A stretch of 64,000 nucleotides of DNA. Source: Candidatus Bipolaricaulota bacterium (GTDB lineage: Bacteria; Bipolaricaulota; Bipolaricaulia; UBA7950; UBA9294). The number at the start of each line of letters is the position of its first letter. The stretch's first letter is position 1. The notes below the pieces were generated by a model. The model was not told the origin of the DNA and ran no database searches. It was given only the letters and a program-made list of their open reading frames with translations. Position numbers and translations under genes: made by a program. Shown here one piece after another: positions 25,074 to 63,341 of this stretch. The stretch is taken from assembly GCA_030606565.1 (NCBI GenBank), contig JAUWGE010000002.1:36107-100106 (forward strand), given 5' to 3'.

Positions 25074-25345
25074 CGCCTGTGCTAGGTGGGGGGCTAGCGG
25101 TCCCCTCCATCCACAACCCGCTATAGTGGAGCCGAAGGGTTCCCAGAGGGGGAAGGCAGTAGGGTCCGTTCTCGGGCAAGCGGTGTTGAGGGTCGAGCCC
25201 TCTGCGGCGCATGTTTGTGAATCCCGTCAGGCCCGGAAGGGAGCAGCGGTAAGCGAGCCTCTGCGGGTGTTAGAGAATAACTTGGCCTGAGCTGGCTGCC
25301 CGTGAAGCGCCTGGTGTCTTCTCACAACGGGACCACGCACAGGCG
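25074..25345 (+). ncRNA. ffs: signal recognition particle RNA, long (Bacillus-type, Alu domain-containing) form
   Basis: Domain IV motif GTCAGGCCCGGAAGGGAGCAGC at ~25228. The 5' Alu-like region CGCCTGTGCTAGGTGGGGGGCTAGCGGTCCCC resembles B. subtilis scRNA. A terminal helix is formed by 5' CGCCTGTGC (25074) pairing with 3' GCACAGGCG (25337-25345). Confidence 0.8.
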
Positions 25346-51733: not shown

Positions 51734-52492
51734 CTATTCCTTGTGGTACACATCGGCGAAGCGGTTTTGTGCGATGATGTTGTCGTGCATTTCAACACTT
51801 ATAACATAGCTTCCGATGCGTACCCCTACGCCCTGCTCGAGGTTCCAGCCATTGTCGGTTATCGTACAGCCGGTGATGATGAGATGCTCCACGGACTGGG
51901 CGTCCATCCCGTCCATCCCGTTTGCGATGAGTTGGCAGTCCTCCACCCGCAACTCGCTAATCTTCCCCCGCGGGCCGATGATGTGAATCCCGGTCCACTC
52001 GTTTTCTTCGATGTGGCAGTTGCGGATTGTGATCCGATCGATCACCTCGCGGTTGACCTCGATTCCGTGTCCGCTGGACATGTTCTTGCGCGCGCCGGTG
52101 ACCGCAATACGATCGAGGATGACTCCGTCGGCATCGACCTCCACCGTGCCCCAGATGTCGGCCATTTCCTCAGCATCTGCATCGGTCGTTACCGTTATGC
52201 GCGGGGTGAGGATCCATACATCCACCTTGTACTGACCGGGGTCAAGCACGATTACGTCGCCGGGATGGGCCTCGATATGCGTATCGAACCAGTCCGTGTT
52301 CCGCACGCCGTTTGCCCCCTGCCACACGGCGATGTCAAGCGGCACCTGTACATCATCAACAATCTTGTAGAACGACTCAGCGATGAGCACCGTGCCCGCG
52401 AAGGGCGCGTCGGCGGGGATGTAAATCTCGGCCCCGATGACGAGAACACCGAAAACAACTGCAACAATGACCACAGCAAGAACATTTTTCAT
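51734..52492 (-). CDS. secreted right-handed parallel beta-helix repeat protein
   Basis: Signal peptide MKNVLAVVIVAVVFGVLVIGA. Repeated beta-helix rungs with Asn/Gly ladders (ITIRNCHIEENEWTGIHII; CTITDNGWNLEQGVGVRI; HDNIIAQNRF). Confidence 0.65.
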   Translation of the reverse strand: MKNVLAVVIVAVVFGVLVIGAEIYIPADAPFAGTVLIAESFYKIVDDVQVPLDIAVWQGANGVRNTDWFDTHIEAHPGDVIVLDPGQYKVDVWILTPRITVTTDADAEEMADIWGTVEVDADGVILDRIAVTGARKNMSSGHGIEVNREVIDRITIRNCHIEENEWTGIHIIGPRGKISELRVEDCQLIANGMDGMDAQSVEHLIITGCTITDNGWNLEQGVGVRIGSYVISVEMHDNIIAQNRFADVYHKE

Positions 52493-52545
52493 CTATGAAT
52501 CCTCCTTAACGATTAACATAACACGAACAACAGACAAAGGCAAGA

Positions 52546-52571
52546 CAAAAAAGGGGAGTGTCCCCCTTTTT
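52546..52571 (-). terminator. rho-independent terminator hairpin (functional on the minus strand; A/T-flanked on both sides)
   Basis: AAAAAAGGGGAGTGTCCCCCTTTTT lies immediately 3' of the stop of the 52578..54662 gene. GGGGA/TCCCC stem with T-run on the minus strand. Confidence 0.6.
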
Positions 52572-52577
52572 GTCGTT

Positions 52578-54662
52578 CTAGATCGTTAGATCAAGCTTAA
52601 TCTGAAGGATCAGTTCATCGCTATCCTTTGTTGGATCATTCCAGTCTACTACGTTCTTCCACGCCAAGGAGAAGGAGATGTCCAGACCATCGGCGATCTC
52701 TCCGTCCCACGAGAGCTCAGCGTGGCGCGTTTCCTTGACCAATGTCTCATTTGACAGGGCTGTCAACGTCCGCTTCGTCTCATCGCTCAGCTGGAGCTGA
52801 AAGGTTCCTTCTGCGACCTCCCAAGAGGTGTCCAGGCTGATTGTCGTCTCCCTCGAAGTGGGTTTAGCGGCATTATTGGGGTGAGCGGTCACCTTGTTTG
52901 TGAGTCCAGCCGAAATGCTCGCCTCAGAAAGATCGAAATCGAGCTGTAGACCGATCTCCTGTACCCATTGGTCCTTCTTGCTGGCGTGAGGGTAGGTCGT
53001 CTGTTGATGAAAGAGCGTCAGCGCAAGGTCGCCGCAGGCCATCTCATTCTCGACTGATCCCTCCCATTTTCGCAAGGAACGGTTCTTGACCGTAGCATTG
53101 GGGTAGACCAGTTCTTCTCGCTCGAGATAGCCGCTGATCGTGGATGCGGACTCATCCCTGGTGTAGCTCACCTTTTGGGTAGACGTGTCACGATTGAGCA
53201 GGCTATCCGCCGGGTAGGTCTTGTTCTCCCACTCAAGGTCGAGCGTCAGGTCTCCGTCATGGAATGGGAAGCCGCACGACAACGGGATGTCAAGCTGCCG
53301 AATTCGCTTACGCGGAAGGATCAACAGCGCCTTGTCCGCCAAGAGCTGGGCAGCGTCGGAGGTGATATCACCATCCCATTTCGCATCGTAGACCTCATCG
53401 ATGAAATCCTCCAACTGGTCGACGGCCTCTCTGCGATCCCCGGCTACAAGTTCCCCCAACGCGCCCTCTTCTCCCAACTCCTTTAGCAGGTCATCTTCCA
53501 CCGCTGCGGGCAGCCCCAATGCGCGCACCTCGTCGATGAGACTCTGAATCGCTGCAATCGCTTGTGAAACCCGGGCGGGCTCAATCTCATCGTCGATATA
53601 GTTTGGGTAGGACTCGGAGTCAAAGGAGACCGACCCCGATGCCGCCCAAGGATCGCGATCCCAAGAGAGCGCAAGGTCGAGACTGTGGCTGATCCTGTCT
53701 TTATCGTCCTTCAACCGGTCCGTGTAATCACGATGTTCCTGCTCGTAGTTGATAGAGGTCCCCCAGTCCTCATCTTCAAACCCCGCCCCAATCTCCAAGT
53801 CCGTCGTATGAACGTCCTTGCTCGGGGCACGGTAGTCATCCGACTCCCAAGTGAGCGTACCATCGAGGTCAATACCCCCAACCGTAGTCGATAGCTCTAG
53901 CTCCCAGAGGCGCTCTGTCCCCTGCTCTTGCACCTTTCGCAGCAGGTAGTCGCCCTTGTACCTGATCCTGTCTGCCTCTTCCTCCTTGATCGCCTCGCCA
54001 CGGTATTGATCAATACGGACTAGAAGCTTCTCTAAATCGCGAATATAGTCTGCCTTGTTGCCATCGGTGAGGTGAAGGACGGTCTCCCGCAAGAGGCTCG
54101 CGATCTGCGGCTTCACCTCATCCCTTGTGTATTTTCTGACCTTGTTTACGATGCACTTCAAGTAGTCGTAGCGTTGCTCGATCGGCTTTGCAACGACAAG
54201 GAGCCTTCCCTTATCCGTACGAGAGATTTCTAGGCAATCGTTCACACGATCGATAAACTGCTTGTCAAGTGCCTTCTCGATGTCCTTCAGCTTATGATAT
54301 AGAGTATCGATTGAGATCCCATTGCCAGCGTTCCTGATCTCAGCAAGAGCAGCCTCAGCCTGCCCGAGCGCCTGTTCCAATGTGTCTTTAAGCGTGCCTG
54401 GGGGCAGGGTGTCTGTCTCGCTGCGAAGGTCATTTAGCGTTCTAAGACTCACTCCACTTAAAACCCCTTCCACGGTGTAGTCCACGTCCATCGATATATC
54501 CGCAAGCGCAGAGGAAAGAGTAAACTGCGATTCTAAGTTAAGCTTTTGCTCGGCAAGGCCTACGATGTCCTGGGTGAAGGAGAGCGCATCCTCCTGTTTA
54601 AAATCGATCGTTTGCGAGAGGGCCGGCGGGGTTAGAAAAAGGAAAAACAAAGCCCAAATCAC
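52578..54662 (-). CDS. large hypothetical secreted protein (acidic, beta-rich C-terminal half)
   Basis: 694 aa with signal peptide MIWALFFLFLTPPALSQ. No recognisable catalytic motif. The C-terminal third has an alternating hydrophobic pattern suggestive of beta structure. Confidence 0.55.
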   Translation of the reverse strand: MIWALFFLFLTPPALSQTIDFKQEDALSFTQDIVGLAEQKLNLESQFTLSSALADISMDVDYTVEGVLSGVSLRTLNDLRSETDTLPPGTLKDTLEQALGQAEAALAEIRNAGNGISIDTLYHKLKDIEKALDKQFIDRVNDCLEISRTDKGRLLVVAKPIEQRYDYLKCIVNKVRKYTRDEVKPQIASLLRETVLHLTDGNKADYIRDLEKLLVRIDQYRGEAIKEEEADRIRYKGDYLLRKVQEQGTERLWELELSTTVGGIDLDGTLTWESDDYRAPSKDVHTTDLEIGAGFEDEDWGTSINYEQEHRDYTDRLKDDKDRISHSLDLALSWDRDPWAASGSVSFDSESYPNYIDDEIEPARVSQAIAAIQSLIDEVRALGLPAAVEDDLLKELGEEGALGELVAGDRREAVDQLEDFIDEVYDAKWDGDITSDAAQLLADKALLILPRKRIRQLDIPLSCGFPFHDGDLTLDLEWENKTYPADSLLNRDTSTQKVSYTRDESASTISGYLEREELVYPNATVKNRSLRKWEGSVENEMACGDLALTLFHQQTTYPHASKKDQWVQEIGLQLDFDLSEASISAGLTNKVTAHPNNAAKPTSRETTISLDTSWEVAEGTFQLQLSDETKRTLTALSNETLVKETRHAELSWDGEIADGLDISFSLAWKNVVDWNDPTKDSDELILQIKLDLTI

Positions 54663-54805
54663 AAAAAAGCTTCCAAAGAAGCCATCCCGCTGCGAGCCTA
54701 TCTTTCACCTCCATAGAATGCCGTAGGGTCCGTGACCCCATGACCCCAAAGTATGCCCGTCACCTGTTGTAAAATTCAATGGTAGACCCCATACTACGAC
54801 GCGCC

Positions 54806-54922
54806 TTAGAGACCTGGTCTTTGGCTGATTGCTGAGAGCTGCCCGCTGATAGCTTTTTACCGCAGAAGCGCTGAAGTCACAGAGTGAAGTGACATGGTAG
54901 AGGCGCGAATTGCGGTATCCCG
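54806..54922 (+). repeat. intergenic repeat family, copy A (core ~117 bp)
   Basis: TTAGAGACCTGGTCTTTGGCTGATTGCTGAGAGCTGCCCGCTGATAGCTTTTTACCGCAGAAGCGCTGAAGTCACAGAGTG...GGCGCGAATTGCGGTATCCCG aligns with copy B (55950..) and copy C (57069..). Confidence 0.8.
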
Positions 54923-55040
54923 CCCCCCTCTCCCTCTCTCCCCATCGCCCCCTCTCCCTCTCCGCACTCTCCGCCCTCCGCATTCCGAACTCATCCTTCC
55001 CTCTTCCTCTTCTCTTTTCCCCACCGGTCCAGTACAGTAA
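54923..55040 (+). repeat. polypyrimidine (CT-rich) tract following repeat copy A, ending in the shared tail TTTTCCCCACCGGTCCAGTACAGTAA
   Basis: About 100 nt that are almost entirely C/T on the + strand (CCCCCTCTCCCTCTCTCCCC...). A similar tract and tail follow copy C at 57181..57292. Confidence 0.8.
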
Positions 55041-55149
55041 TAGAGGGGTTATCTTTGTGCTGGTGCCAAGCGGTTGTCTATCTCTTGTCTTTGAGTTATC
55101 ATAAAATTGATTGGGCTGATTAGAAGGGCAGGAGGGGAGGGAGTACGCT

Positions 55150-55425
55150 ATGGCGGTGAGTACCAAGATCCCGAATGATCTGGATAAGCAAACCTTTGCC
55201 AAGCGGGCTAAAGCCCTTTACAACCACAGATACCGCAAGAGACTTGAAGCGGCCGAGTGGGGTAAAGTAATTGCCATTGAAGTGGAAAGCGGGGAGGTTT
55301 TCATCGGCCGTACAGCTTTGGAAGCTGGATTAAAGGCTCGAGAGAAATATCCTGATAAGTTCTTCTACTTTATCCGGATCGGATATCCGGCAGTTCACTG
55401 TCTAAAGAGCCCTGGCAAGCCGTGA
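55150..55425 (+). CDS. small partner protein of retropepsin-like protease module (DUF5678-like)
   Basis: 91 aa with a ...GKVIAIEVESGEVFIGRTALEAGLKAREKYPDKFFYFIRIG pattern. The stop overlaps the start of the downstream protease gene. Confidence 0.55.
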   Translation: MAVSTKIPNDLDKQTFAKRAKALYNHRYRKRLEAAEWGKVIAIEVESGEVFIGRTALEAGLKAREKYPDKFFYFIRIGYPAVHCLKSPGKP

Positions 55426-55805
55426 GTTATCTCGGAAAGGTGTTCTTACAAGGGTTCATCAACGATAATCTGGAGCCAATAGTGGAGAACGTTATCTTAG
55501 TCGGTAAGGAAGAGCGGATTTCACTAGAAGCCATTCTGGACACCGGTTTTAATGGGATGTGCTGCTTGCCAAGGAAGTTCCAACCCCTGTGCGAGCTCAA
55601 TGCTCTCGGCATAGAAACTTTCGAGTTAGCCGATGGAACCTTGGTTGAAGAAGAACTATACGTGGGACAAATTCTCGTGGGTGACGTTTGTTATTCCGTT
55701 GAGCTGACCCTGACTGATGCCGATCGAGCCCTGTTAGGTATGCAATTGTTGCTAGATAAAGTTGCTATCTTCGACCTTAAGACGATGCGAATCGAGGTGA
55801 AATAA
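55422..55805 (+). CDS. retropepsin-like (clan AA) aspartic protease
   Basis: 127 aa with the catalytic motif ILDTGFNGMC (D-T-G), which is a retroviral-type aspartyl protease fold signature. Translationally coupled to the upstream small gene. Confidence 0.65.
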   Translation: MSYLGKVFLQGFINDNLEPIVENVILVGKEERISLEAILDTGFNGMCCLPRKFQPLCELNALGIETFELADGTLVEEELYVGQILVGDVCYSVELTLTDADRALLGMQLLLDKVAIFDLKTMRIEVK

Positions 55806-55949
55806 GGAGCGGGTTCAGTTGGAGCCCTGGTATGGTATGCGCACAACCGGTCGCTGTGGCTCGATCTGATCATTCGGTAAACCGCGGGTCTACGCAACGC
55901 TAGTCGAGAATCGATGCACTACTACCTTCCAGCAATCAGTTTGCGCATC

Positions 55950-56080
55950 TTAGAGGCCTGGTCTTTGGTTGGCAACTGGCAGCTGATAGCTTTTTACCGC
56001 AGAGGCCTTGAAGTCACAGAGTGGGGATGACACGTTAAGGGCGCGAATCGCGGTATCCCGAAATCATTTTGTGTCAAGTG
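55950..56080 (+). repeat. intergenic repeat family, copy B
   Basis: TTAGAGGCCTGGTCTTTGGTTGGCAACTGGCAGCTGATAGCTTTTTACCGCAGAGGCCTTGAAGTCACAGAGTGGGGATGACACGTTAAGGGCGCGAATCGCGGTATCCCGAAATCATTTTGTGTCAAGTG. Confidence 0.8.
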
Positions 56081-56148
56081 CCCCCGGGTCCTATGGACAT
56101 CAGACTTCGGACTAAGTAGACTATCAGCTATAGGAAGGGGTGTTTTTA

Positions 56149-56445
56149 ATGGTGCTAACAGTACGGACGCAAGAGCTGCTGGAAAAGGTATTGGCAGTCC
56201 TGCCGACTGCTGAGGATGAGGTTATCACTAAGGGCATCACCAGTAGCGTGGCCGATCGGATTCTGGAGTTGAAGAGATCCGCCCACCGCTTGAAGGAGAC
56301 CTATGGCAACGTTGAGAAGCTGGAGAAACGGATCGAGGAGGAAAGTGTCTCCGCGGACGATCATACACTCTACAATGACCTCCTGGAGTGGCGGGCAACT
56401 CTGGACGAGTTGGATAAACTGTTGCAGATTCTAGAATCCCTCTGA
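56149..56445 (+). CDS. hypothetical small helical protein (first gene of a coupled small-gene string)
   Basis: Start MVLTVRTQELLEKV... with an RBS-like GGAAGGGG upstream. The stop overlaps the next start (TGATG). Confidence 0.45.
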   Translation: MVLTVRTQELLEKVLAVLPTAEDEVITKGITSSVADRILELKRSAHRLKETYGNVEKLEKRIEEESVSADDHTLYNDLLEWRATLDELDKLLQILESL

Positions 56446-56843
56446 TGCCAGTCTCTCCGTCTTGGCACCAGAGGGTTCGAACCAGCCTAGAAGCGTCGGG
56501 TATCTTTGCTGGTGTGAAGATCATAGGAGCTAAGGTGCGCGGGGTCATCAGCAAGGAGCTGTATGTGGACATCTATTATGACCCAACCACCAACAGTTAC
56601 TCCTATGCCTTGATCGATCAAACCCTTCCCTATCCAGGGGACAAGCGAGTCTTTCTTTGGGTGGGATGACTATCCACACAAGAACGTGCGGAAATCAAAC
56701 AGCTCGAAAGCTTCCCGCACCATTTCCAGAAACGAAACAAAGAAGGATGGATCTTTGAGGAGTCTCCGATGCGCGGGAACGTGAAGGGCGAGATGGACTT
56801 GGTAATCAAAATGGTGAAAGAATATCTGAAAACATCAACATGA
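56445..56843 (+). pseudogene. small ORF interrupted by an in-frame TGA at 56667-56669; the frame stays coding-like to 56843
   Basis: Reads MPVSPSWHQRVRTSLEASGIFAGVKIIGAKVRGVISKELYVDIYYDPTTNSYSYALIDQTLPYPGDKRVFLWVG, then TGA, then continues in the same frame as LSTQERAEIKQLESFPHHFQKRNKEGWIFEESPMRGNVKGEMDLVIKMVKEYLKTST. Confidence 0.4.
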
Positions 56844-57022
56844 GAATTGAGCAGTTTGAGGATCTTTTAAGACCCTACGTTGAGGGTTTCAGATTTATGG
56901 AAGATGGTTCAAGTCAAGAAATTGGTTTAAGGATATTGAAATTTGGAGAGCGGCGAGGAGCTGTCCCAAGAAGGCAGCCTTCAGCAATCATGATTCAGCG
57001 GTCAGGAAGTGACAATCAGTGA
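56840..57022 (+). CDS. hypothetical small protein (third coupled ORF)
   Basis: 60 aa, with ATGA start/stop overlap with the preceding reading frame. Weak support. Confidence 0.3.
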   Translation: MRIEQFEDLLRPYVEGFRFMEDGSSQEIGLRILKFGERRGAVPRRQPSAIMIQRSGSDNQ

Positions 57023-57068
57023 TCAGTTTACAACAACCCATTACTCACCGGCTTTCACGCTTTTGCTT

Positions 57069-57171
57069 CTGGCTGAATGCTAATTTACCGGTAGAGGCGC
57101 TGAGGTTGCAGCGAGAGATGACACGTCAAGGGCGCGGATCGCGGTATCCCAAAATCGTTTTGTGTCAAGTG
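57069..57171 (+). repeat. intergenic repeat family, copy C
   Basis: CTGGCTGAATGCTAATTTACCGGTAGAGGCGCTGAGGTTGCAGCGAGAGATGACACGTCAAGGGCGCGGATCGCGGTATCCCAAAATCGTTTTGTGTCAAGTG. Its 3' half is nearly identical to copy B. Confidence 0.8.
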
Positions 57172-57180
57172 TAGGCCTGA

Positions 57181-57292
57181 CCCTCTGCTGCCCCTGCCTC
57201 GACTTGCTTTTCCTTCTCCCCCTCTCCGTGTCGCCCCCTCTCCCTATCTCTCCTTTTCCCCTTCGGCTTTTCCCCACCGATCCGGTATACTA
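57181..57292 (+). repeat. polypyrimidine (CT-rich) tract following repeat copy C, ending in the shared tail TTTTCCCCACCGATCCGGTATACTAA
   Basis: CCCTCTGCTGCCCCTGCCTCGACTTGCTTTTCCTTCTCCCCCTCTCCGTGTCGCCCCCTCTCCCTATCTCTCCTTTTCCCC... It sits directly upstream of the RBS of the 57310 gene. Confidence 0.8.
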
Positions 57293-57309
57293 AGAAAATC
57301 CAACCGGAG

Positions 57310-58117
57310 GTGAGTCTCATGATGAGACGGCCTTACTTCATCCTTCTTTCCTTGCTGCTCATCGCGGTCCCTATTCTTGGCGGTGACTTGCCCCAGGTCG
57401 TTCAGCCTAACACAACAGGCTATTCGGCCACAGAGGTTGCCGCTCTTGTCCGAGAGATCTCCGCCCTCGAAGAAACGCTCAACGATCATTCCTTCGGCTC
57501 ACGGCGCAGCTTTGCCCCCAACGGGTGGCAGGGCCGCAACTTTGCCGAGTACACCGGGGGAGTCCTCGCCGAGCGGGGATACCCAATTACGCTCGCCAGC
57601 CAACCTGGCTGGCCCGACGGCGTCCATACGTGGGCTCTCAACTGGAGGACAAACGGCCTGGGTCCCGGTGGAAGCCTCCCCGGAACCTGGGAACAGCCAG
57701 CGGAGCCTCGGCTATGTCCCGAGCTATTCAGACAGTACCGGAGACCTGTGGTTCGAGGCGACGTATCTTGACTTCAACGAGGCAGTGAGCCTGCCGGCAA
57801 ATCTCCCACCCGTTGCGAAGATTCGCCCACCCTCCCCTCCTGTTGTGATCAATAAGGGCGTCAGAATCTTCACGGTTGGTTCTCACGACCCAGATGGGGA
57901 AATCGTGCTTTATCGATGGGACTTTGGCGATGGAAATATCAAGACAGCCACAGCATCCAGCATCCGCCACAAGTTCAGAAGACCCGGCACCCATACCGTC
58001 TCCTTGACCGTTGTTGACAACCGCGGCAAGAGCGCTGCCACCAGCGTCACCATCTCGGTTATGGAGCCTGATGGGAGTGTAGCCCCATCCGACGGGGGGT
58101 GTGGGTGTGGGACTTGA
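57310..58117 (+). pseudogene. secreted PKD-domain protein, apparent frameshift between ORFs 57310..57771 and 57377..58117
   Basis: Signal peptide MMRRPYFILLSLLLIAVPILG in frame 1. The PKD domain (YRWDFGDGNIKTATASSIRHKFRRPGTHTVSLTVVDNRGKSAATSVTISV) is in frame 2. The plausible junction is near 57690-57710. Confidence 0.55.
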
Positions 58118-58476
58118 AGATGAACTGAACCGCTTCATTGTGTTCGTTTCCGAGAAGGAGGCCCAACTACTTGAGCAAGTTCCAACGGTACGTCAAACGA
58201 TCGCTTGCTCTCCTCCTATGGCTTACTGGCACGGATAGTCTGACTATCCCGTTTTGAGCTAGCCGTTGAAAACAGGCTCTTCTTACGGTAGTTACTAGAC
58301 TGTAGTTTTCGATCCCAGGGGCCTGTCATCATAAAATCCCGAGATGAGGAAGCCTTTTATCTTCCAGGCTGTATAAAACAAAACCCTCTTTTCTCCTTCC
58401 TTTATCCACAGAACCTAAGAACCAAAAAAGGGCCCTGGCGAACCAGGGCCCTGTATTCACTTGAGTTAAACCTGGG

Positions 58477-60426
58477 CTACCAAATGAAGCCAAAACCCAG
58501 GCTGAAGATCTCCCATCCGCGGAAGGAAACCTCGGAACCAACGGTGAGGGTGAAGTTCGAGAAGAGCGAGACGCTGACATTGACGTCGGTCGCCATCCAG
58601 CTAAACAGCTGGTTGAGCTGGCCGACCTCGGTGTAGTTGGCGTCCTGTGTGAACTCACAGTAGTATACGGGTTCCGCCGGATCCAGGAAGCAGCACTCTT
58701 TCTCATAATCTTTAATGCAGATGCAGCCACAGAACTCTGGATCGGCCTCGTACTCCTTCCCGATGTAGTTGTCGATTGTGATCTCGTAGGCGCCGCCGCA
58801 GCAGGCATCCCCAGCGAGCACGATACCGAACGACTCCCAGGCGTAGTACTTGTACTTGGGCGTCTCCCAGTACTCGAGGTGGATCCCATCGTCAGGACCC
58901 GTGAGGTCGCCGTCGCCATCGTCTTCGAACGGCGGACACCAAGCGGCACAGCCAGTCGGAACGAGGAACCGCAGCATCTCATCCGATGAGATCGTCTTTA
59001 AAGCGTTTGTCGGCAGGTCGTAAAGCACGGTCTTGAAGGTAGCCGTTGCGCCGTTGAACTCACAGGTGAGCGAGAAGTCCTTGATGTCGATCCCGGTCAG
59101 CTTGTTCGCGATAGAGTTGTGTGACTCGTCCTCTTTCCAGTTGGCGAGAAGGGTCATGCTGAAACAGGTATCGAGCCCGAAGCTGGGCTGGCCGCACAGC
59201 GCGAACTCCTTCTCATCGGTGGTTAACTTGATCGAGGCCGTGAGGTCGTAGAAGCCGGGGATGAACGGGATGTCCTTCACGAGGAACTGCAGGTACTCAA
59301 AGCCGACAACCGCCGTCGTGAATGTGCAATCCTCATCCCAGGAAGGCAAGTAGATGGGGATTAGCGTCCCATCAGGCATCACATACTCCTTCAACAGCTC
59401 GTCCTCGCACACGCAGGTGAGGGTCTCCGACTCCTCAGGGCAGACAAGCTTCAGGGCCACATCAAGGGTGGTGTTGCAGCAGAAGGGGATTCCCTCTACC
59501 ATGAAGTATTCCTCGATGAAGCCAATGCCACACCCTGCGGCAACGGCGTAGTTGCCCTTCTTGCCAAGCACGGGACAGCCGGAATCGGTATCCGCCTTCT
59601 TATCCGACTCGGTCATGTTGAAGTAGGTGAAGCTGGTGAAGTTCATACCGCCCACGCTGCCGGCGAGATTCAGCCGGAATCCGGCCCCGATCGGAGTCGA
59701 CCCAGGAACGGTGCAGGTGCCAGTCTGAAGCACGTCTACACCAACAGCATGCGTAGAGCCACTCTGCGGCACGTGCGTCCAGTAGATGTTCTCCGGCATC
59801 TCAACCGGGAATAGGTACTCAGTACAGACGTCCCACAAGAAGATGTCTGTTATGGTGGTCGTCCCGGCCCAGGCGTTCATCAGGAACAGGCCTCCAAGCT
59901 GAACTCCGGCGAGGCTAATATCCACAGCCAGCTCAAAGTCCTTAAACGCTGGCCCAGTTACCTCGGCCCAGCGGTCGAGGCTGCACCCTGGGAAAAGCGT
60001 GAGTACGGTGGTCTTGCAACAGGTAGCGGCGAAATTGTTGTAGAGGTACCAGGGCCAGATCTGGGCTGGGTCAATCCCCCCCCACCATCCCTGCGTCTTT
60101 GTTAGGACGGCAGAAGGCAGGAACTCCATCTTGGCAGCGAGGTTAATCGCCCCGAGGCTGCCTGCGGCGCTGAACTCCTGGGCGTTGAAACCGTGCTGGG
60201 CGTCGAAGCTAGACTTGCTTTCAAAGACGAACCCACCCACGGTATAGTCCACTACCAAGTCGGAACTTAAGCCCCATATCTCCCACCATTGGTAGGGACA
60301 TGGGCTTCCCAACTTATAGAGGTCAAAAGTGTATGTAAAGTCCCAACTGCCTGTAAACGTCTGGGCGGATACTAATGCACCACCCGCCAACACCAACATA
60401 CATGCTATTACGAGAGCTTTCTTCAT
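58477..60426 (-). CDS. large Cys-rich secreted protein, candidate outer-membrane beta-barrel/porin-like partner of the upstream SLH protein
   Basis: 649 aa with signal peptide MKKALVIACMLVLAGGALVSA, more than 30 Cys, beta-rich composition and a C-terminal aromatic end ...SLGFGFIW. The SD AGGAGGTAATGATAG precedes the ATG. Confidence 0.6.
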   Translation of the reverse strand: MKKALVIACMLVLAGGALVSAQTFTGSWDFTYTFDLYKLGSPCPYQWWEIWGLSSDLVVDYTVGGFVFESKSSFDAQHGFNAQEFSAAGSLGAINLAAKMEFLPSAVLTKTQGWWGGIDPAQIWPWYLYNNFAATCCKTTVLTLFPGCSLDRWAEVTGPAFKDFELAVDISLAGVQLGGLFLMNAWAGTTTITDIFLWDVCTEYLFPVEMPENIYWTHVPQSGSTHAVGVDVLQTGTCTVPGSTPIGAGFRLNLAGSVGGMNFTSFTYFNMTESDKKADTDSGCPVLGKKGNYAVAAGCGIGFIEEYFMVEGIPFCCNTTLDVALKLVCPEESETLTCVCEDELLKEYVMPDGTLIPIYLPSWDEDCTFTTAVVGFEYLQFLVKDIPFIPGFYDLTASIKLTTDEKEFALCGQPSFGLDTCFSMTLLANWKEDESHNSIANKLTGIDIKDFSLTCEFNGATATFKTVLYDLPTNALKTISSDEMLRFLVPTGCAAWCPPFEDDGDGDLTGPDDGIHLEYWETPKYKYYAWESFGIVLAGDACCGGAYEITIDNYIGKEYEADPEFCGCICIKDYEKECCFLDPAEPVYYCEFTQDANYTEVGQLNQLFSWMATDVNVSVSLFSNFTLTVGSEVSFRGWEIFSLGFGFIW

Positions 60427-61272: not shown

Positions 61273-61372
61273 TCAGCTATCAGCAGTCAGCTAAAAGCCA
61301 AACTGCAAAGACCGACAAGCCAACGTATGAAATGTAGGTTGCTTCTTGCCGTAAGCTGAGAGCTGATCACTG
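61270..61372 (+). repeat. degenerate copies of the intergenic repeat family (one inverted, one direct fragment)
   Basis: CAGCTATCAGC...CAAAGACC (61274-61313) is the reverse complement of the GGTCTTTG...GCTGATAGCTG segment of copies A/B. GCTGAGAGCTGATCAC (61355-61370) matches the CTGAGAGCTG segment of copy A. Confidence 0.55.
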
Positions 61373-62149
61373 CTTCACCTTGAAGCTTCGGCGGTGGATC
61401 GATGATGGACCGAGGCGCTTGAGCGCCGCAAGATGAGCAGGCGTCCCGTATCCCTTGTTAGAATCGAGTCCATATCCAGGGTATTGAGCGTTAAGCTTGA
61501 CCATCATCCGGTCACGATAGACCTTGGCGAGGATGGAAGCAGCCGCGATGTGAAGGGAGCGGGAATCCCCTTTGGTGAACGACAGCGCGGGAGGGCGAGA
61601 AATTGAGTGATTGAGAGATTGAGTGATCGGGGGATTGGAAGATTGAGAGATTGAAAGATTGAGTGATTGAGTGATTGAGTGATCGGATGATTGAGAGATT
61701 GGATGGTTGGGAGTTCTAGGTTGTAAATGATTCAATCTCTCACTCGCTAAATCTCTCAATAGTGTGAGCCCGCGGTCGAGCAGGAGGAGGTCGACCGGGT
61801 GTCTCATGGCGCGATAGGCGCGCTGGGCGGCAAGGGTTAGGGCAAGAACGATCCCGACACGATCGATCTCGGACGGTGTAGCGTAGCCGATCCCCCAGTT
61901 AGAGACGGAAGTGATCCGGGGAAAGAGCGCCTCCCGCCTCTTTGAGGAGACCCGCTTGGAATCGTCGATCCCAGCGAGGAAATCAAGAATCGATGTTCCA
62001 CGTCGGGCATGAAGCCCGACGCTACAGGGATTCCTTTCCTCCTCAACGTCGGGCATGAAGCCCGACGCTACAGGAATGTGGACACAGCAGACGACAACCG
62101 GACCGGCAAGGGCCCCACGACCCACCTCATCGAAGCCGGCAATCTCCAT
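61367..62149 (-). CDS. rnhB: ribonuclease HII with internal low-complexity insertions (the ORF is open to 62467)
   Basis: Canonical N-terminus MEIAGFDEVGRGALAGPVVVCCV at 62149, and C-terminal RNase HII region (SKRREALFPRI..., KGDSRSLHIAAASILAKVYRD). An in-frame 8-bp tandem array and an extra insert (VASGFMPDVEEERNPCSVGLHARRG) interrupt the fold. Confidence 0.8.
   Translation of the reverse strand: MEIAGFDEVGRGALAGPVVVCCVHIPVASGFMPDVEEERNPCSVGLHARRGTSILDFLAGIDDSKRVSSKRREALFPRITSVSNWGIGYATPSEIDRVGIVLALTLAAQRAYRAMRHPVDLLLLDRGLTLLRDLASERLNHLQPRTPNHPISQSSDHSITQSLNLSISQSSNPPITQSLNHSISRPPALSFTKGDSRSLHIAAASILAKVYRDRMMVKLNAQYPGYGLDSNKGYGTPAHLAALKRLGPSSIHRRSFKVKQ
61601..61713 (+). repeat. tandem repeat (GATTGAGN)x14 inside the rnhB reading frame
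   Basis: Fourteen consecutive 8-bp units (gattgagt gattgaga gattgagt gatcgggg gattggaa ...). On the minus strand they encode an 8-aa periodic SITQSLNH-like insert. Inverted partial copies (CAATCTCTCACT, AATCTCTCAAT) follow at 61731-61762. Confidence 0.85.
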
Positions 62150-62453
62150 GGTTTTTATTCTTTTCGTTTCACCGCAGAGATCGCGGAGGCCACAGAGGTT
62201 TTTACCTCTATAGGAGTTCTCCGCGTTCTTTGCGTACCTGGGGGGTGTAGTAAATCCCTCTCCGGACACTACACCCCCCGAGACGGTAGAAGCTTTTGAA
62301 AACGGACGTCGGACGTTGGGGACAAGGCCCTCAACGTCGGGCGTAAAGCCCTCAACGTCGGGCACAAGGCCCTCAACTACAGAGGAGCGGATCTGTTCGT
62401 CGAAGGCGTAGAGCTCACGCACGCGTAAAACAGGTGAGGAGGGGTTCTTGCTC

Positions 62454-63341
62454 CTAGTTTTTGCCATGAAGGCTGAAGTAGCCGTTCATCGGCCCAAAGC
62501 GGGGAAGCGGCCACACACGCAGGTACGGCTCGCCGATGAGGTCGTCCTCATCGACAAATCCCCAGAAACGCGAATCCCAGGAGTCCTCCGAGTTATCCCC
62601 GAGGACAAACCACTTACCTTCCGGGACGAGAGTCGGAGTTACCCCGTAGTGCATACGGGGGTCGCTCGAGGTGTAGTGGCGGTCAAAGCGCGGGCCTTTA
62701 AGTTTCTCTTCGTTTAGATAGATGTCCCCGCCCTTGATATATACGGTTTGCCCTCCTACGGCGATCAGCCGCTTTACATACCGTACTTTCTTTTCACGCC
62801 CCAAAATCCCTAAATCGGCAAGCGAATCGATTCCCACTTCTCTTAACCCCAAGTCCAGTTGGCGGCCTTCATACAATGCAAGATAGATGTGCGTTCCCTC
62901 AGGGAGGGAAGCGATAATCTCATCTGCCCCGGCGGCGACCGCTTGCTGGTTTATATAGATGATCCGATCTTTAACATTAAGACCGGCGCGTGCGGCCCGT
63001 GAGCCGTCTTTTACTTCCTTCACCAGAACCGCTTCGGTGTGCCAAAAGACAACGATGTCCCCTGGCTTGGGATCGCGGAAATAGTAGGAGATCTTATCGA
63101 CAAAGAAACTGTCGGCCACAAGTACACTACGGTCGCCATTGATCGTTGGGTACATCGAATCAGTGGGTACGTGCATGCGCACGGTGACAAAGCTGATCAC
63201 AAGAAAAGCAAGGACACCCGCGACAACAAGGACCTCAACCCACTCCAGGATCTCGCTTGATACTCGCCCGGGGTTATAGCCGAAACGGCGAACCAGGCGC
63301 AGGATGAACGCTTGCTTCTTCTCCTTCTTTTTTCTTTTCAT
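62454..63341 (-). CDS. lepB: signal peptidase I
   Basis: 295 aa with TM anchor, catalytic Ser box PTDSMYPTI, and GDNSEDSWDSRFWGFV (box E). Confidence 0.85.
   Translation of the reverse strand: MKRKKKEKKQAFILRLVRRFGYNPGRVSSEILEWVEVLVVAGVLAFLVISFVTVRMHVPTDSMYPTINGDRSVLVADSFFVDKISYYFRDPKPGDIVVFWHTEAVLVKEVKDGSRAARAGLNVKDRIIYINQQAVAAGADEIIASLPEGTHIYLALYEGRQLDLGLREVGIDSLADLGILGREKKVRYVKRLIAVGGQTVYIKGGDIYLNEEKLKGPRFDRHYTSSDPRMHYGVTPTLVPEGKWFVLGDNSEDSWDSRFWGFVDEDDLIGEPYLRVWPLPRFGPMNGYFSLHGKN

Follow-up and report, generated by a model that had tools for sequence, protein, structure and literature searches.

Positions 56091-56925 of the window (the whole 64,000-nucleotide stretch of Bipolaricaulota DNA analyzed here) hold, with a probability which we put at roughly 0.9, a TumA-TumE-type cassette in which tumE has recently been pseudogenised by a four-nucleotide duplication (+TCTT) and the loss of a single C. 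The window tumE is an ordinary, recently inactivated gene of the known TumE family standing beside an intact TumA-type partner, and the in-frame TGA followed by coding-like sequence, which had drawn attention to this locus as a possible recoding event, is accounted for by these two lesions.

Results

Organization of the cassette

The three open reading frames lying between 56149 and 57022, their TGATG and ATGA start/stop overlaps, and the open frame which continues past the TGA of the second ORF were all confirmed as they had been described in the preliminary description (Table 1), although the "58 codons" given there for the continuation had included the final stop. The peptide which had been quoted for this continuation is correct and corresponds position by position to the C-terminal half of over 200 DUF6516/TumE proteins, and for this reason the post-TGA stretch is to be read as real coding sequence and not as a chance open frame. 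The edges of the cassette, as mapped by blastn, fall at 56091/56093 on the left and at 56925 on the right, and were identical in all contexts with the exception of L017, which alone extends the homology past 56925, to 56979. The site at 56094-56122 is promoter-like by its consensus match, and its sequence is kept in the 87%-identical orthologues L002 and L003.

Table 1. Positions of the cassette, its genes and lesions, and the neighbouring repeats in the window.
Feature	Position	Strand	Remarks
Repeat copy A	54800-55040	+	Its 54800-54886 common with left part of copy B
Repeat copy B	55944-56080	+	Upstream of tumAE cassette; right part common with copy C (57117-57171)
Conserved cassette unit	56091-56925	+	97.6-98.7% identity with L001, L005, L007, L008, L017 and L021
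Promoter-like site (TGGACA, 17-nt spacer, TAGACT)	56094-56122	+	Consensus scan; left edge of cassette, upstream of tumA
ORF1, TumA-type partner (putative antitoxin)	ATG 56149 to TGA 56443-56445	+	Intact, 98 aa; C-terminal motif DDHTLYxDLLEWRA
ORF2	ATG 56445 to TGA 56667-56669	+	Overlaps ORF1 as TGATG
Post-TGA continuation of ORF2 frame	to TGA 56841-56843	+	57 sense codons
tumE pseudogene (DUF6516, PF20126)	56445-56843	+	ORF2 plus continuation; one gene, two frameshifts
Lesion 1, +TCTT tandem duplication (TCTT TCTT)	56650-56653	+	Extra copy equally placeable at 56654-56657
Premature TGA	56667-56669	+	Native GAT GAC (DD of GWDDYPH) read out of frame as GGA TGA C
Lesion 2, one C lost	56689-56690	+	GTGCCGGAA to GTGCGGAA, after 56689
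ORF3	ATG 56840 to 57022	+	Overlap with preceding frame, ATGA
Repeat copy C	57084-57293	+	Downstream of tumAE cassette, then CT-rich tract

Identification of tumE

A DUF6516 gene is as a rule the downstream member of a bicistronic pair with diverse partners, and for six gammaproteobacterial pairs studied in E. coli the DUF6516 protein was a translation-inhibiting toxin neutralised by its partner (Durairaj et al., Nature 2023, PMC10584680). When the translation of ORF2 joined to its continuation was scanned against Pfam, it matched PF20126 (TumE, formerly DUF6516) with 14.4 bits, the match spanning the TGA. The score stays below the gathering cut-off of 23.4 bits since the window carries the motif region in another frame; the intact L007 allele, whose protein differs from that of the window outside the frameshifted stretch by S50N alone, passes the cut-off with 34.1 bits (E = 2.7e-8). 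The earlier statement that no family could be recognised for any part is thereby superseded. With the joined sequence as query, 207 homologues at E <= 1e-3 were obtained from 5.8 billion proteins. Among the 120 homologues listed nearly all are 124-136 aa in length, the few shorter ones being truncated calls (e.g., P0057 and P0037), and all 25 of those aligned are uninterrupted across the TGA position and match PF20126 TumE. Whether homologues are single uninterrupted proteins had been raised as a check at the outset, and more than 200 of them, typically about 126-132 aa long, prove to be so. Residues invariant in the 25 aligned homologues are FGW-DDYPH...S(F/Y)PHHFQxR...W..E.S.MR; where relatives have FGWDDYPHxNVP the window reads FLWVG(stop)LSTQERA, with agreement on both flanks of this stretch.

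The published TumE fold is of the alpha+beta type, its two helices lying against an antiparallel sheet of seven strands (PMC10584680). The AlphaFold model of a 77%-identical homologue (P0001, pLDDT 92.9) likewise consists of two helices (H7-18 and H112-130) and seven strands, and the lesion of the window allele starts in strand 5. No solved-structure relatives of TumE were found either by sequence profile or by Foldseek (best E = 0.17), and searches of PADLOC and NCBIfam gave no matches. By analogy with the validated pairs, an intact TumE of the present subgroup would be expected to inhibit translation. An uninterrupted frame encoding the GWDDYPH ... PHHFQxR core is absent from the window tumE, and at the level of sequence the window copy is a pseudogene of the TumE family and not a functional member.

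The two lesions and the premature TGA

Comparison of the window with L007 (98.4% identity; intact product of 131 aa) revealed two lesions, +TCTT and -C, and the same two were recovered when the window DNA was aligned with the 87%-identical orthologues L002 and L003. Lesion 1 (GAG TCTT TCTT TGGG in the window, GAG TCTT TGGG in L007; within 56647-56692, GAGTCTTTCTTTGGG in the window and GAGTCTTTGGG in the intact form) shifts the frame by +1 and is absent from all eight other sequences which cover the site in the DNA alignments and the allele table. The 12 codons between the two lesions are out of frame and take the place of the invariant GWDDYPH motif, which can still be read in the +1 frame of the window as FGWDDYPHKNV; native TGG GAT GAC is read here as GTG GGA TGA, producing the stop at 56667. 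Lesion 2 brings reading back to the original frame, and it is because of this deletion that the 57 codons downstream are protein-like. As the window differs from its relatives only between the lesions and agrees with them on both sides, the pattern is one of two compensating frameshifts and not of point nonsense, and the TGA is best described as a hidden out-of-frame stop, neither a nonsense mutation nor a recoding site. Thus of the "nonsense-mutated gene (fresh pseudogene)" proposed in the preliminary description, the pseudogene stands, while the nonsense mutation is replaced by the paired frameshifts seen on alignment with intact relatives.

With respect to the consequences for the protein, the TCTT duplication would throw the ribosome into the other frame and translation would end after 74 codons, the second lesion restoring the original frame by chance. 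The 74-aa product would keep helix 1 and strands 1-4 and would be without GWDDYPH, PHHFQxR, strands 6-7 and the C-terminal helix; since both motifs and these elements are missing from it, its toxin activity is presumably lost. The TGATG overlap of the tumA-like gene with what would be a 131-codon tumE suggests translational coupling of the two.

ORF1, a putative TumA-type antitoxin

ORF1 is a genuine gene. When 1.8 billion representative proteins were searched exhaustively with phmmer, its family came to 37 clusters at E <= 1e-3, most of them about 98 aa long; the best matches are 98 aa in length and align end to end, and the C-terminal PDDHTLYxDLLEWRA is strongly conserved. In every context examined (window, L002, L003, L007, L008 and L009-L015) a gene of 97-98 aa abuts or overlaps the start of the DUF6516 gene; among them are contigs (35 kb, 104 kb and 23-29 kb) with unrelated neighbourhoods, and this adjacency is kept in diverged taxa. 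No significant match to ORF1 was found in local Pfam, NCBIfam, PADLOC or PDB, the last giving only spurious helical matches, and the sole domain signal was a weak precomputed Pfam match to PF27273 (MJ0235). TumA is defined operationally as the cognate partner of TumE. From the synteny with DUF6516, and given the partner role reported in PMC10584680, we infer that ORF1 is a putative antitoxin of TumA type, the putative function of which would be to neutralise TumE.

ORF3

An unusual multi-part toxin-antitoxin (TA)-like cassette had also been considered in the preliminary description. Its TA-like character is borne out by the tumA-like gene and tumE, but its three-part structure is not, as ORF3 belongs to no family and has a C-terminus which depends on the junction. 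When 5.8 billion proteins were searched, ORF3 matched a single one, the 36-aa version of L005/L007, with which it has the first 28 codons in common. According to context ORF3 ends in one of three different tails, giving 60 aa in the window, 58 aa in L017 and 36 aa in L005/L007, because the homology of the cassette ends at 56925 (56979 in L017). ORF3 is absent downstream of tumE in L002, L003, L012 and L013, an unrelated 44-aa ORF occupies this place in L009, and more distant orthologues carry unrelated sequence beyond the tumE stop. ORF3 was rejected as a third cassette component on account of the one 36-aa match, the variable C-termini and the unrelated ORF in L009, and it is probably an open frame running over the right cassette boundary and not a gene.

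Decay of the module in sister alleles

The relatives compared were L001 (an ENA scaffold), the orthologues L002 and L003, L005 (a GTDB MAG, Candidatus Bipolaricaulota bacterium RS_12_53), L007 and L008, and L017-L022 (JGI metagenomes), and the comparison of decay was made between alleles diverged by no more than about 2% (Table 2). Independent disabling events number six in tumE and two in tumA. No indels were observed in the 141 nt of non-coding cassette sequence, nor in the 801-nt neighbouring cassette. The 90%-identity protein cluster contains 13 distinct called products, and the -AC form of tumE is present in at least 30 contigs on several SNP backgrounds.

Table 2. State of tumA and tumE in the window and in related alleles.
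Allele	tumA	tumE
L007	Intact	Intact
Window	Intact	+TCTT and -C
L001	No lesion in covered part (first 14 nt missing)	+A after 56606
L005	Intact	-AC (56599-56600)
L021	+A after 56244	-AC (common with L005)
L022	+A (common with L021)	Outside contig end
L008	Intact	Q9 to stop and +A
L017	-7 nt	Intact

Segregating sites in tumAE comprise 3 synonymous and 11 non-synonymous changes, as compared with the 14 synonymous and 3 non-synonymous differences which separate the window from L005 in the neighbouring cassette (cassette 1, 55150-55805; Fisher p = 0.001). The substitutions in tumAE are thus neutral-like, whereas the neighbouring cassette is under purifying selection. The whole tumAE module is decaying in this lineage.

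An in-frame GTG was seen in L017 (391-588, equivalent to window 56251-56445) which leaves a 65-aa C-terminal tumA ORF containing DDHTLYxDLLEWRA. Both tumA frameshifts, at codons 18 and 32, lie upstream of that GTG, so the neutralising part of the tumA protein may still be made from it in the frameshifted alleles. The state of L017, with an intact tumE beside a frameshifted tumA, is unexpected for a potent TumE toxin unless the 65-aa tumA product is re-initiated at the GTG.

Alternative explanations

Decoding of the TGA, either by simple read-through or as selenocysteine, tryptophan or glycine, would yield a 132-aa protein and would agree with the frame being open on either side of the TGA, as well as with a fold of 56660-56730 which is weakly more stable than shuffled sequence (z = -1.8). 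However, the open frame is already accounted for by the compensating -1 deletion, the decoded product would carry LWVGxLSTQERA instead of the invariant GWDDYPHxNVP and falls below the Pfam cut-off, and no homologue has Cys or Sec at the TGA position, where relatives have Asp-Asp codons in another frame. The SECIS-like hairpin which the preliminary description had envisaged just downstream of 56669 did not appear when 56660-56730 was folded, there being no clean hairpin after the TGA. An Rfam search over 54.6-57.4 kb gave no match at E <= 1, a search of the whole window at the gathering threshold gave nothing supporting selenocysteine or read-through, and a tRNA scan of the window found no tRNA-Sec. 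Furthermore, TGA is the commonest genuine stop in the window, ending 16 of the 36 long ORFs, tumA and tumE included, and on this count a genome-wide reassignment of TGA was rejected. Stop-codon read-through or recoding, as first suggested, is therefore left without support, and we regard it as extremely improbable. The same is to be said of programmed ribosomal frameshifting (+1 near CUU UGG, then -1 near GUG CGG), by which normal TumE would be made, the +1 frame between the lesions giving back GWDDYPHKNV. Two distinct programmed shifts at a distance of 40 nt from each other would be required, with no recognisable slippery site or stimulator, while the intact relatives L007, L017 and L002 have a single frame and need no shift at all. 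The other alleles are broken at unrelated positions, a pattern which is mutational and not that of a conserved recoding signal, and no +4/-1 configuration conserved in diverged relatives was found.

That the two indels are sequencing or assembly errors, with the gene intact in the organism, is unlikely, although it deserves more weight than either form of recoding. The two lesions of the window allele rest on two assemblies, possibly from one sequencing run, and local consensus problems could be suspected from the PKD-domain gene next to the cassette (57319-58117), which likewise occupies two frames. On the other side, a Logan assembly produced with a different pipeline (L023, run SRR14876846) matches the window at 100% identity along 6.8 kb (52445-59248), and a 4-nt tandem duplication is atypical as a base-calling error. 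The housekeeping genes of the window give full-length domain matches (e.g., archease 1-136/136 and SPase II 1-141/142), making a generally error-ridden assembly unlikely. Other sister-allele lesions recur across independent assemblies (-AC in L005/L021, +A in L021/L022); such variants must then be biological, and real decay of tumE is the norm in this lineage. Very unlikely, too, is the retention of the 74-aa fragment or of an orphan tumA for some new role such as anti-addiction or regulation, in which case the locus would not be purely decaying. Orphan antitoxins are known to persist after toxin loss, and tumA is intact in the window, L005, L007 and L008. However, tumA has 4 non-synonymous and 0 synonymous segregating sites together with two independent sister-allele frameshifts, which speaks for relaxed constraint on tumA as well, and the lesions of tumE lie at many different positions and would leave different fragments. 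Recent pseudogenisation of tumE by paired frameshifts, within a decaying module, is thus the reading which we retain.

The surrounding genomic island

A FIMAH-domain gene (52578-54662, minus strand) and the PKD-domain gene flank the small variable island to which the cassette belongs. In the window this island holds two cassettes, tumAE and, at 55150-55805, a pair of genes encoding 91-aa and 127-aa proteins. In this pair (cassette 1) the stop of the 91-aa ORF overlaps the start of the gene for the 127-aa protein, which has a DTGF motif and weakly matches gag-asp_proteas as well as TIGR03698 (clan AA aspartic protease; 30 bits). Strong purifying selection acts on these two genes, whose L005 counterparts are 97% identical, and they may form an uncharacterised TA-like pair. 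In L005 at least 7 TA-like cassettes were found in 8 kb, as compared with the two of the window, and these modules include MNT-like, DUF4160/HTH, RelB/YafQ, tumAE, PDDEXK_3 and DUF4258/zinc-finger types.

Three direct repeat copies (A, B and C; Table 1) bracket the two TA cassettes of the window, with CT-rich tracts following copies A and C. They contain a 21-mer, GGGCGCGRATCGCGGTATCCC, which has 3 matches in the window as against 0.01 expected by chance, and the repeat is also present at L005 1104-1172. When genome contigs were scanned with the 21-mer, L005 was the one relevant locus to emerge, the two matches in L004 and L006 being due to chance. Folding of the repeat gave z-scores of -1.0 to +1.6 relative to shuffled sequence and there was no Rfam match over 54.6-57.4 kb; a structured RNA was rejected, since the repeat folds no better than shuffled sequence and matches no Rfam family. 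Inspection of 56091, 56925 and repeats A, B and C for attC-like R''/R' motifs (RYYYAAC...GTTRRRY, in the right order) found none, and none of the nine large ORFs scanned between 48.9 and 63.3 kb matched an integrase family. With no motif, no stable fold and no integrase nearby, an attC/integron reading of the flanking repeats was likewise rejected.

The spacers of L005 (897-1055, 4745-4820 and 6924-7153) consist of tandem heptamer/14-mer repeats of GCTGANN type, preceded by the motif GGTCTTTGG, and degenerate GCTGANN copies were seen in the window at 54816-54854 and 55964-55991, with an inverted copy at 61275-61313. These spacers resemble short tandemly repeated intergenic sequences, and gain and loss of cassettes may be mediated by them. 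The TA cassettes of the window (55013-55813 and 56091-56925) are 97-98% identical to those of L005 (3224-4024 and 4829-5658), and the flanking PKD gene is only about 86% identical (window 57876-58054, L005 7792-7973); either the cassettes have been exchanged between diverged genomes or the flanking PKD gene evolves unusually fast.

The secreted PKD-domain gene at 57319-58117 is split, with a switch of frame between 57640 and 57652 such that the 57319 frame encodes the signal peptide and N-terminal part, and the frame of 57377-58117 the PKD part. As its L005 orthologue (about 86% nucleotide identity) is one uninterrupted frame, this is a probable second frameshift pseudogene right beside tumE. 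Elsewhere in the window, an 8-nt tandem array of about 12.5 copies (ATTGAGTG, 61597-61713) and a 21-nt array of about 3 copies with hairpin-like GGGC...GCCC units (62313-62377) both lie inside a long ORF at 61367-62467 (minus strand) of which only the C-terminal 70 residues match RNase HII. Because the arrays lie within it and the RNase HII match is confined to those 70 residues, the N-terminal part of this ORF is probably non-coding. At 25077-25342, adjoining tRNA-Ser, the window has an SRP RNA of the bacterial large (Alu-domain-containing) type (161.6 bits against the Rfam model).

Discussion

These results remove a candidate recoding or read-through event. Two compensating frameshifts have left as their mark an in-frame TGA with good coding sequence after it, a pattern which it is useful to recognise in genome scans. 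In addition, an uncharacterised TumA-type family (98 aa, DDHTLYxDLLEWRA) is placed beside a TumE subgroup of Bipolaricaulota, Chloroflexi and archaeal metagenomes, and the locus offers a small natural example of a TA module caught in the midst of decay, with lesions which differ between strains. The current understanding of TA biology is unchanged by the finding. A more far-reaching proposal would be that the many knock-outs reflect active selection for loss of the module in wild Bipolaricaulota-like populations and that the island is a new cassette-shuffling platform, the latter because it is integrase-less and delimited by heptamer repeats, with 97-98% identical cassettes apparently exchanged between genomes in which the flanking genes have only about 86% identity; this we consider doubtful, though not far-fetched.

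The TumE-TumA superfamily (PMC10584680) is the system closest to the present one: the intact allele passes PF20126, the predicted fold is the same, the toxin lies downstream of a small overlapping partner, and TumE is without a solved-structure relative both in that paper and here. While the validated TumE members are gammaproteobacterial (subcluster 1a), the present subgroup is found in Bipolaricaulota, Chloroflexi and archaeal metagenomes and has its own 98-aa helical partner, weakly PF27273 MJ0235-like and with no recognisable DNA-binding domain. Unlike the validated members, the toxin gene of the window is a frameshifted pseudogene.

Bacterial selenoprotein genes, in which UGA is followed directly by a SECIS element, have in common with the window an in-frame TGA and then open, protein-like sequence, but the TGA of the window was made by a frameshift, and SECIS, Cys/Sec homologues and a tRNA-Sec in the window are all lacking. 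The island is similar to integron/CALIN arrays rich in TA modules in having adjacent short, promoter-bearing TA cassettes which are separated by repeats and vary in content between related genomes; in contrast to those arrays, the spacers of the window and L005 are GCTGANN heptamer tandem repeats together with an element containing the 21-mer. In decaying chromosomal TA loci, such as the chromosomal ccd homologues of E. coli, the toxin is inactivated while the antitoxin persists. The tumAE module conforms to this in its several independent toxin knock-outs among close strains, its mostly intact antitoxin and its neutral-like substitutions, but differs in that here the antitoxin has been struck as well (L017, L021 and L022), in L017 with the toxin ORF intact.
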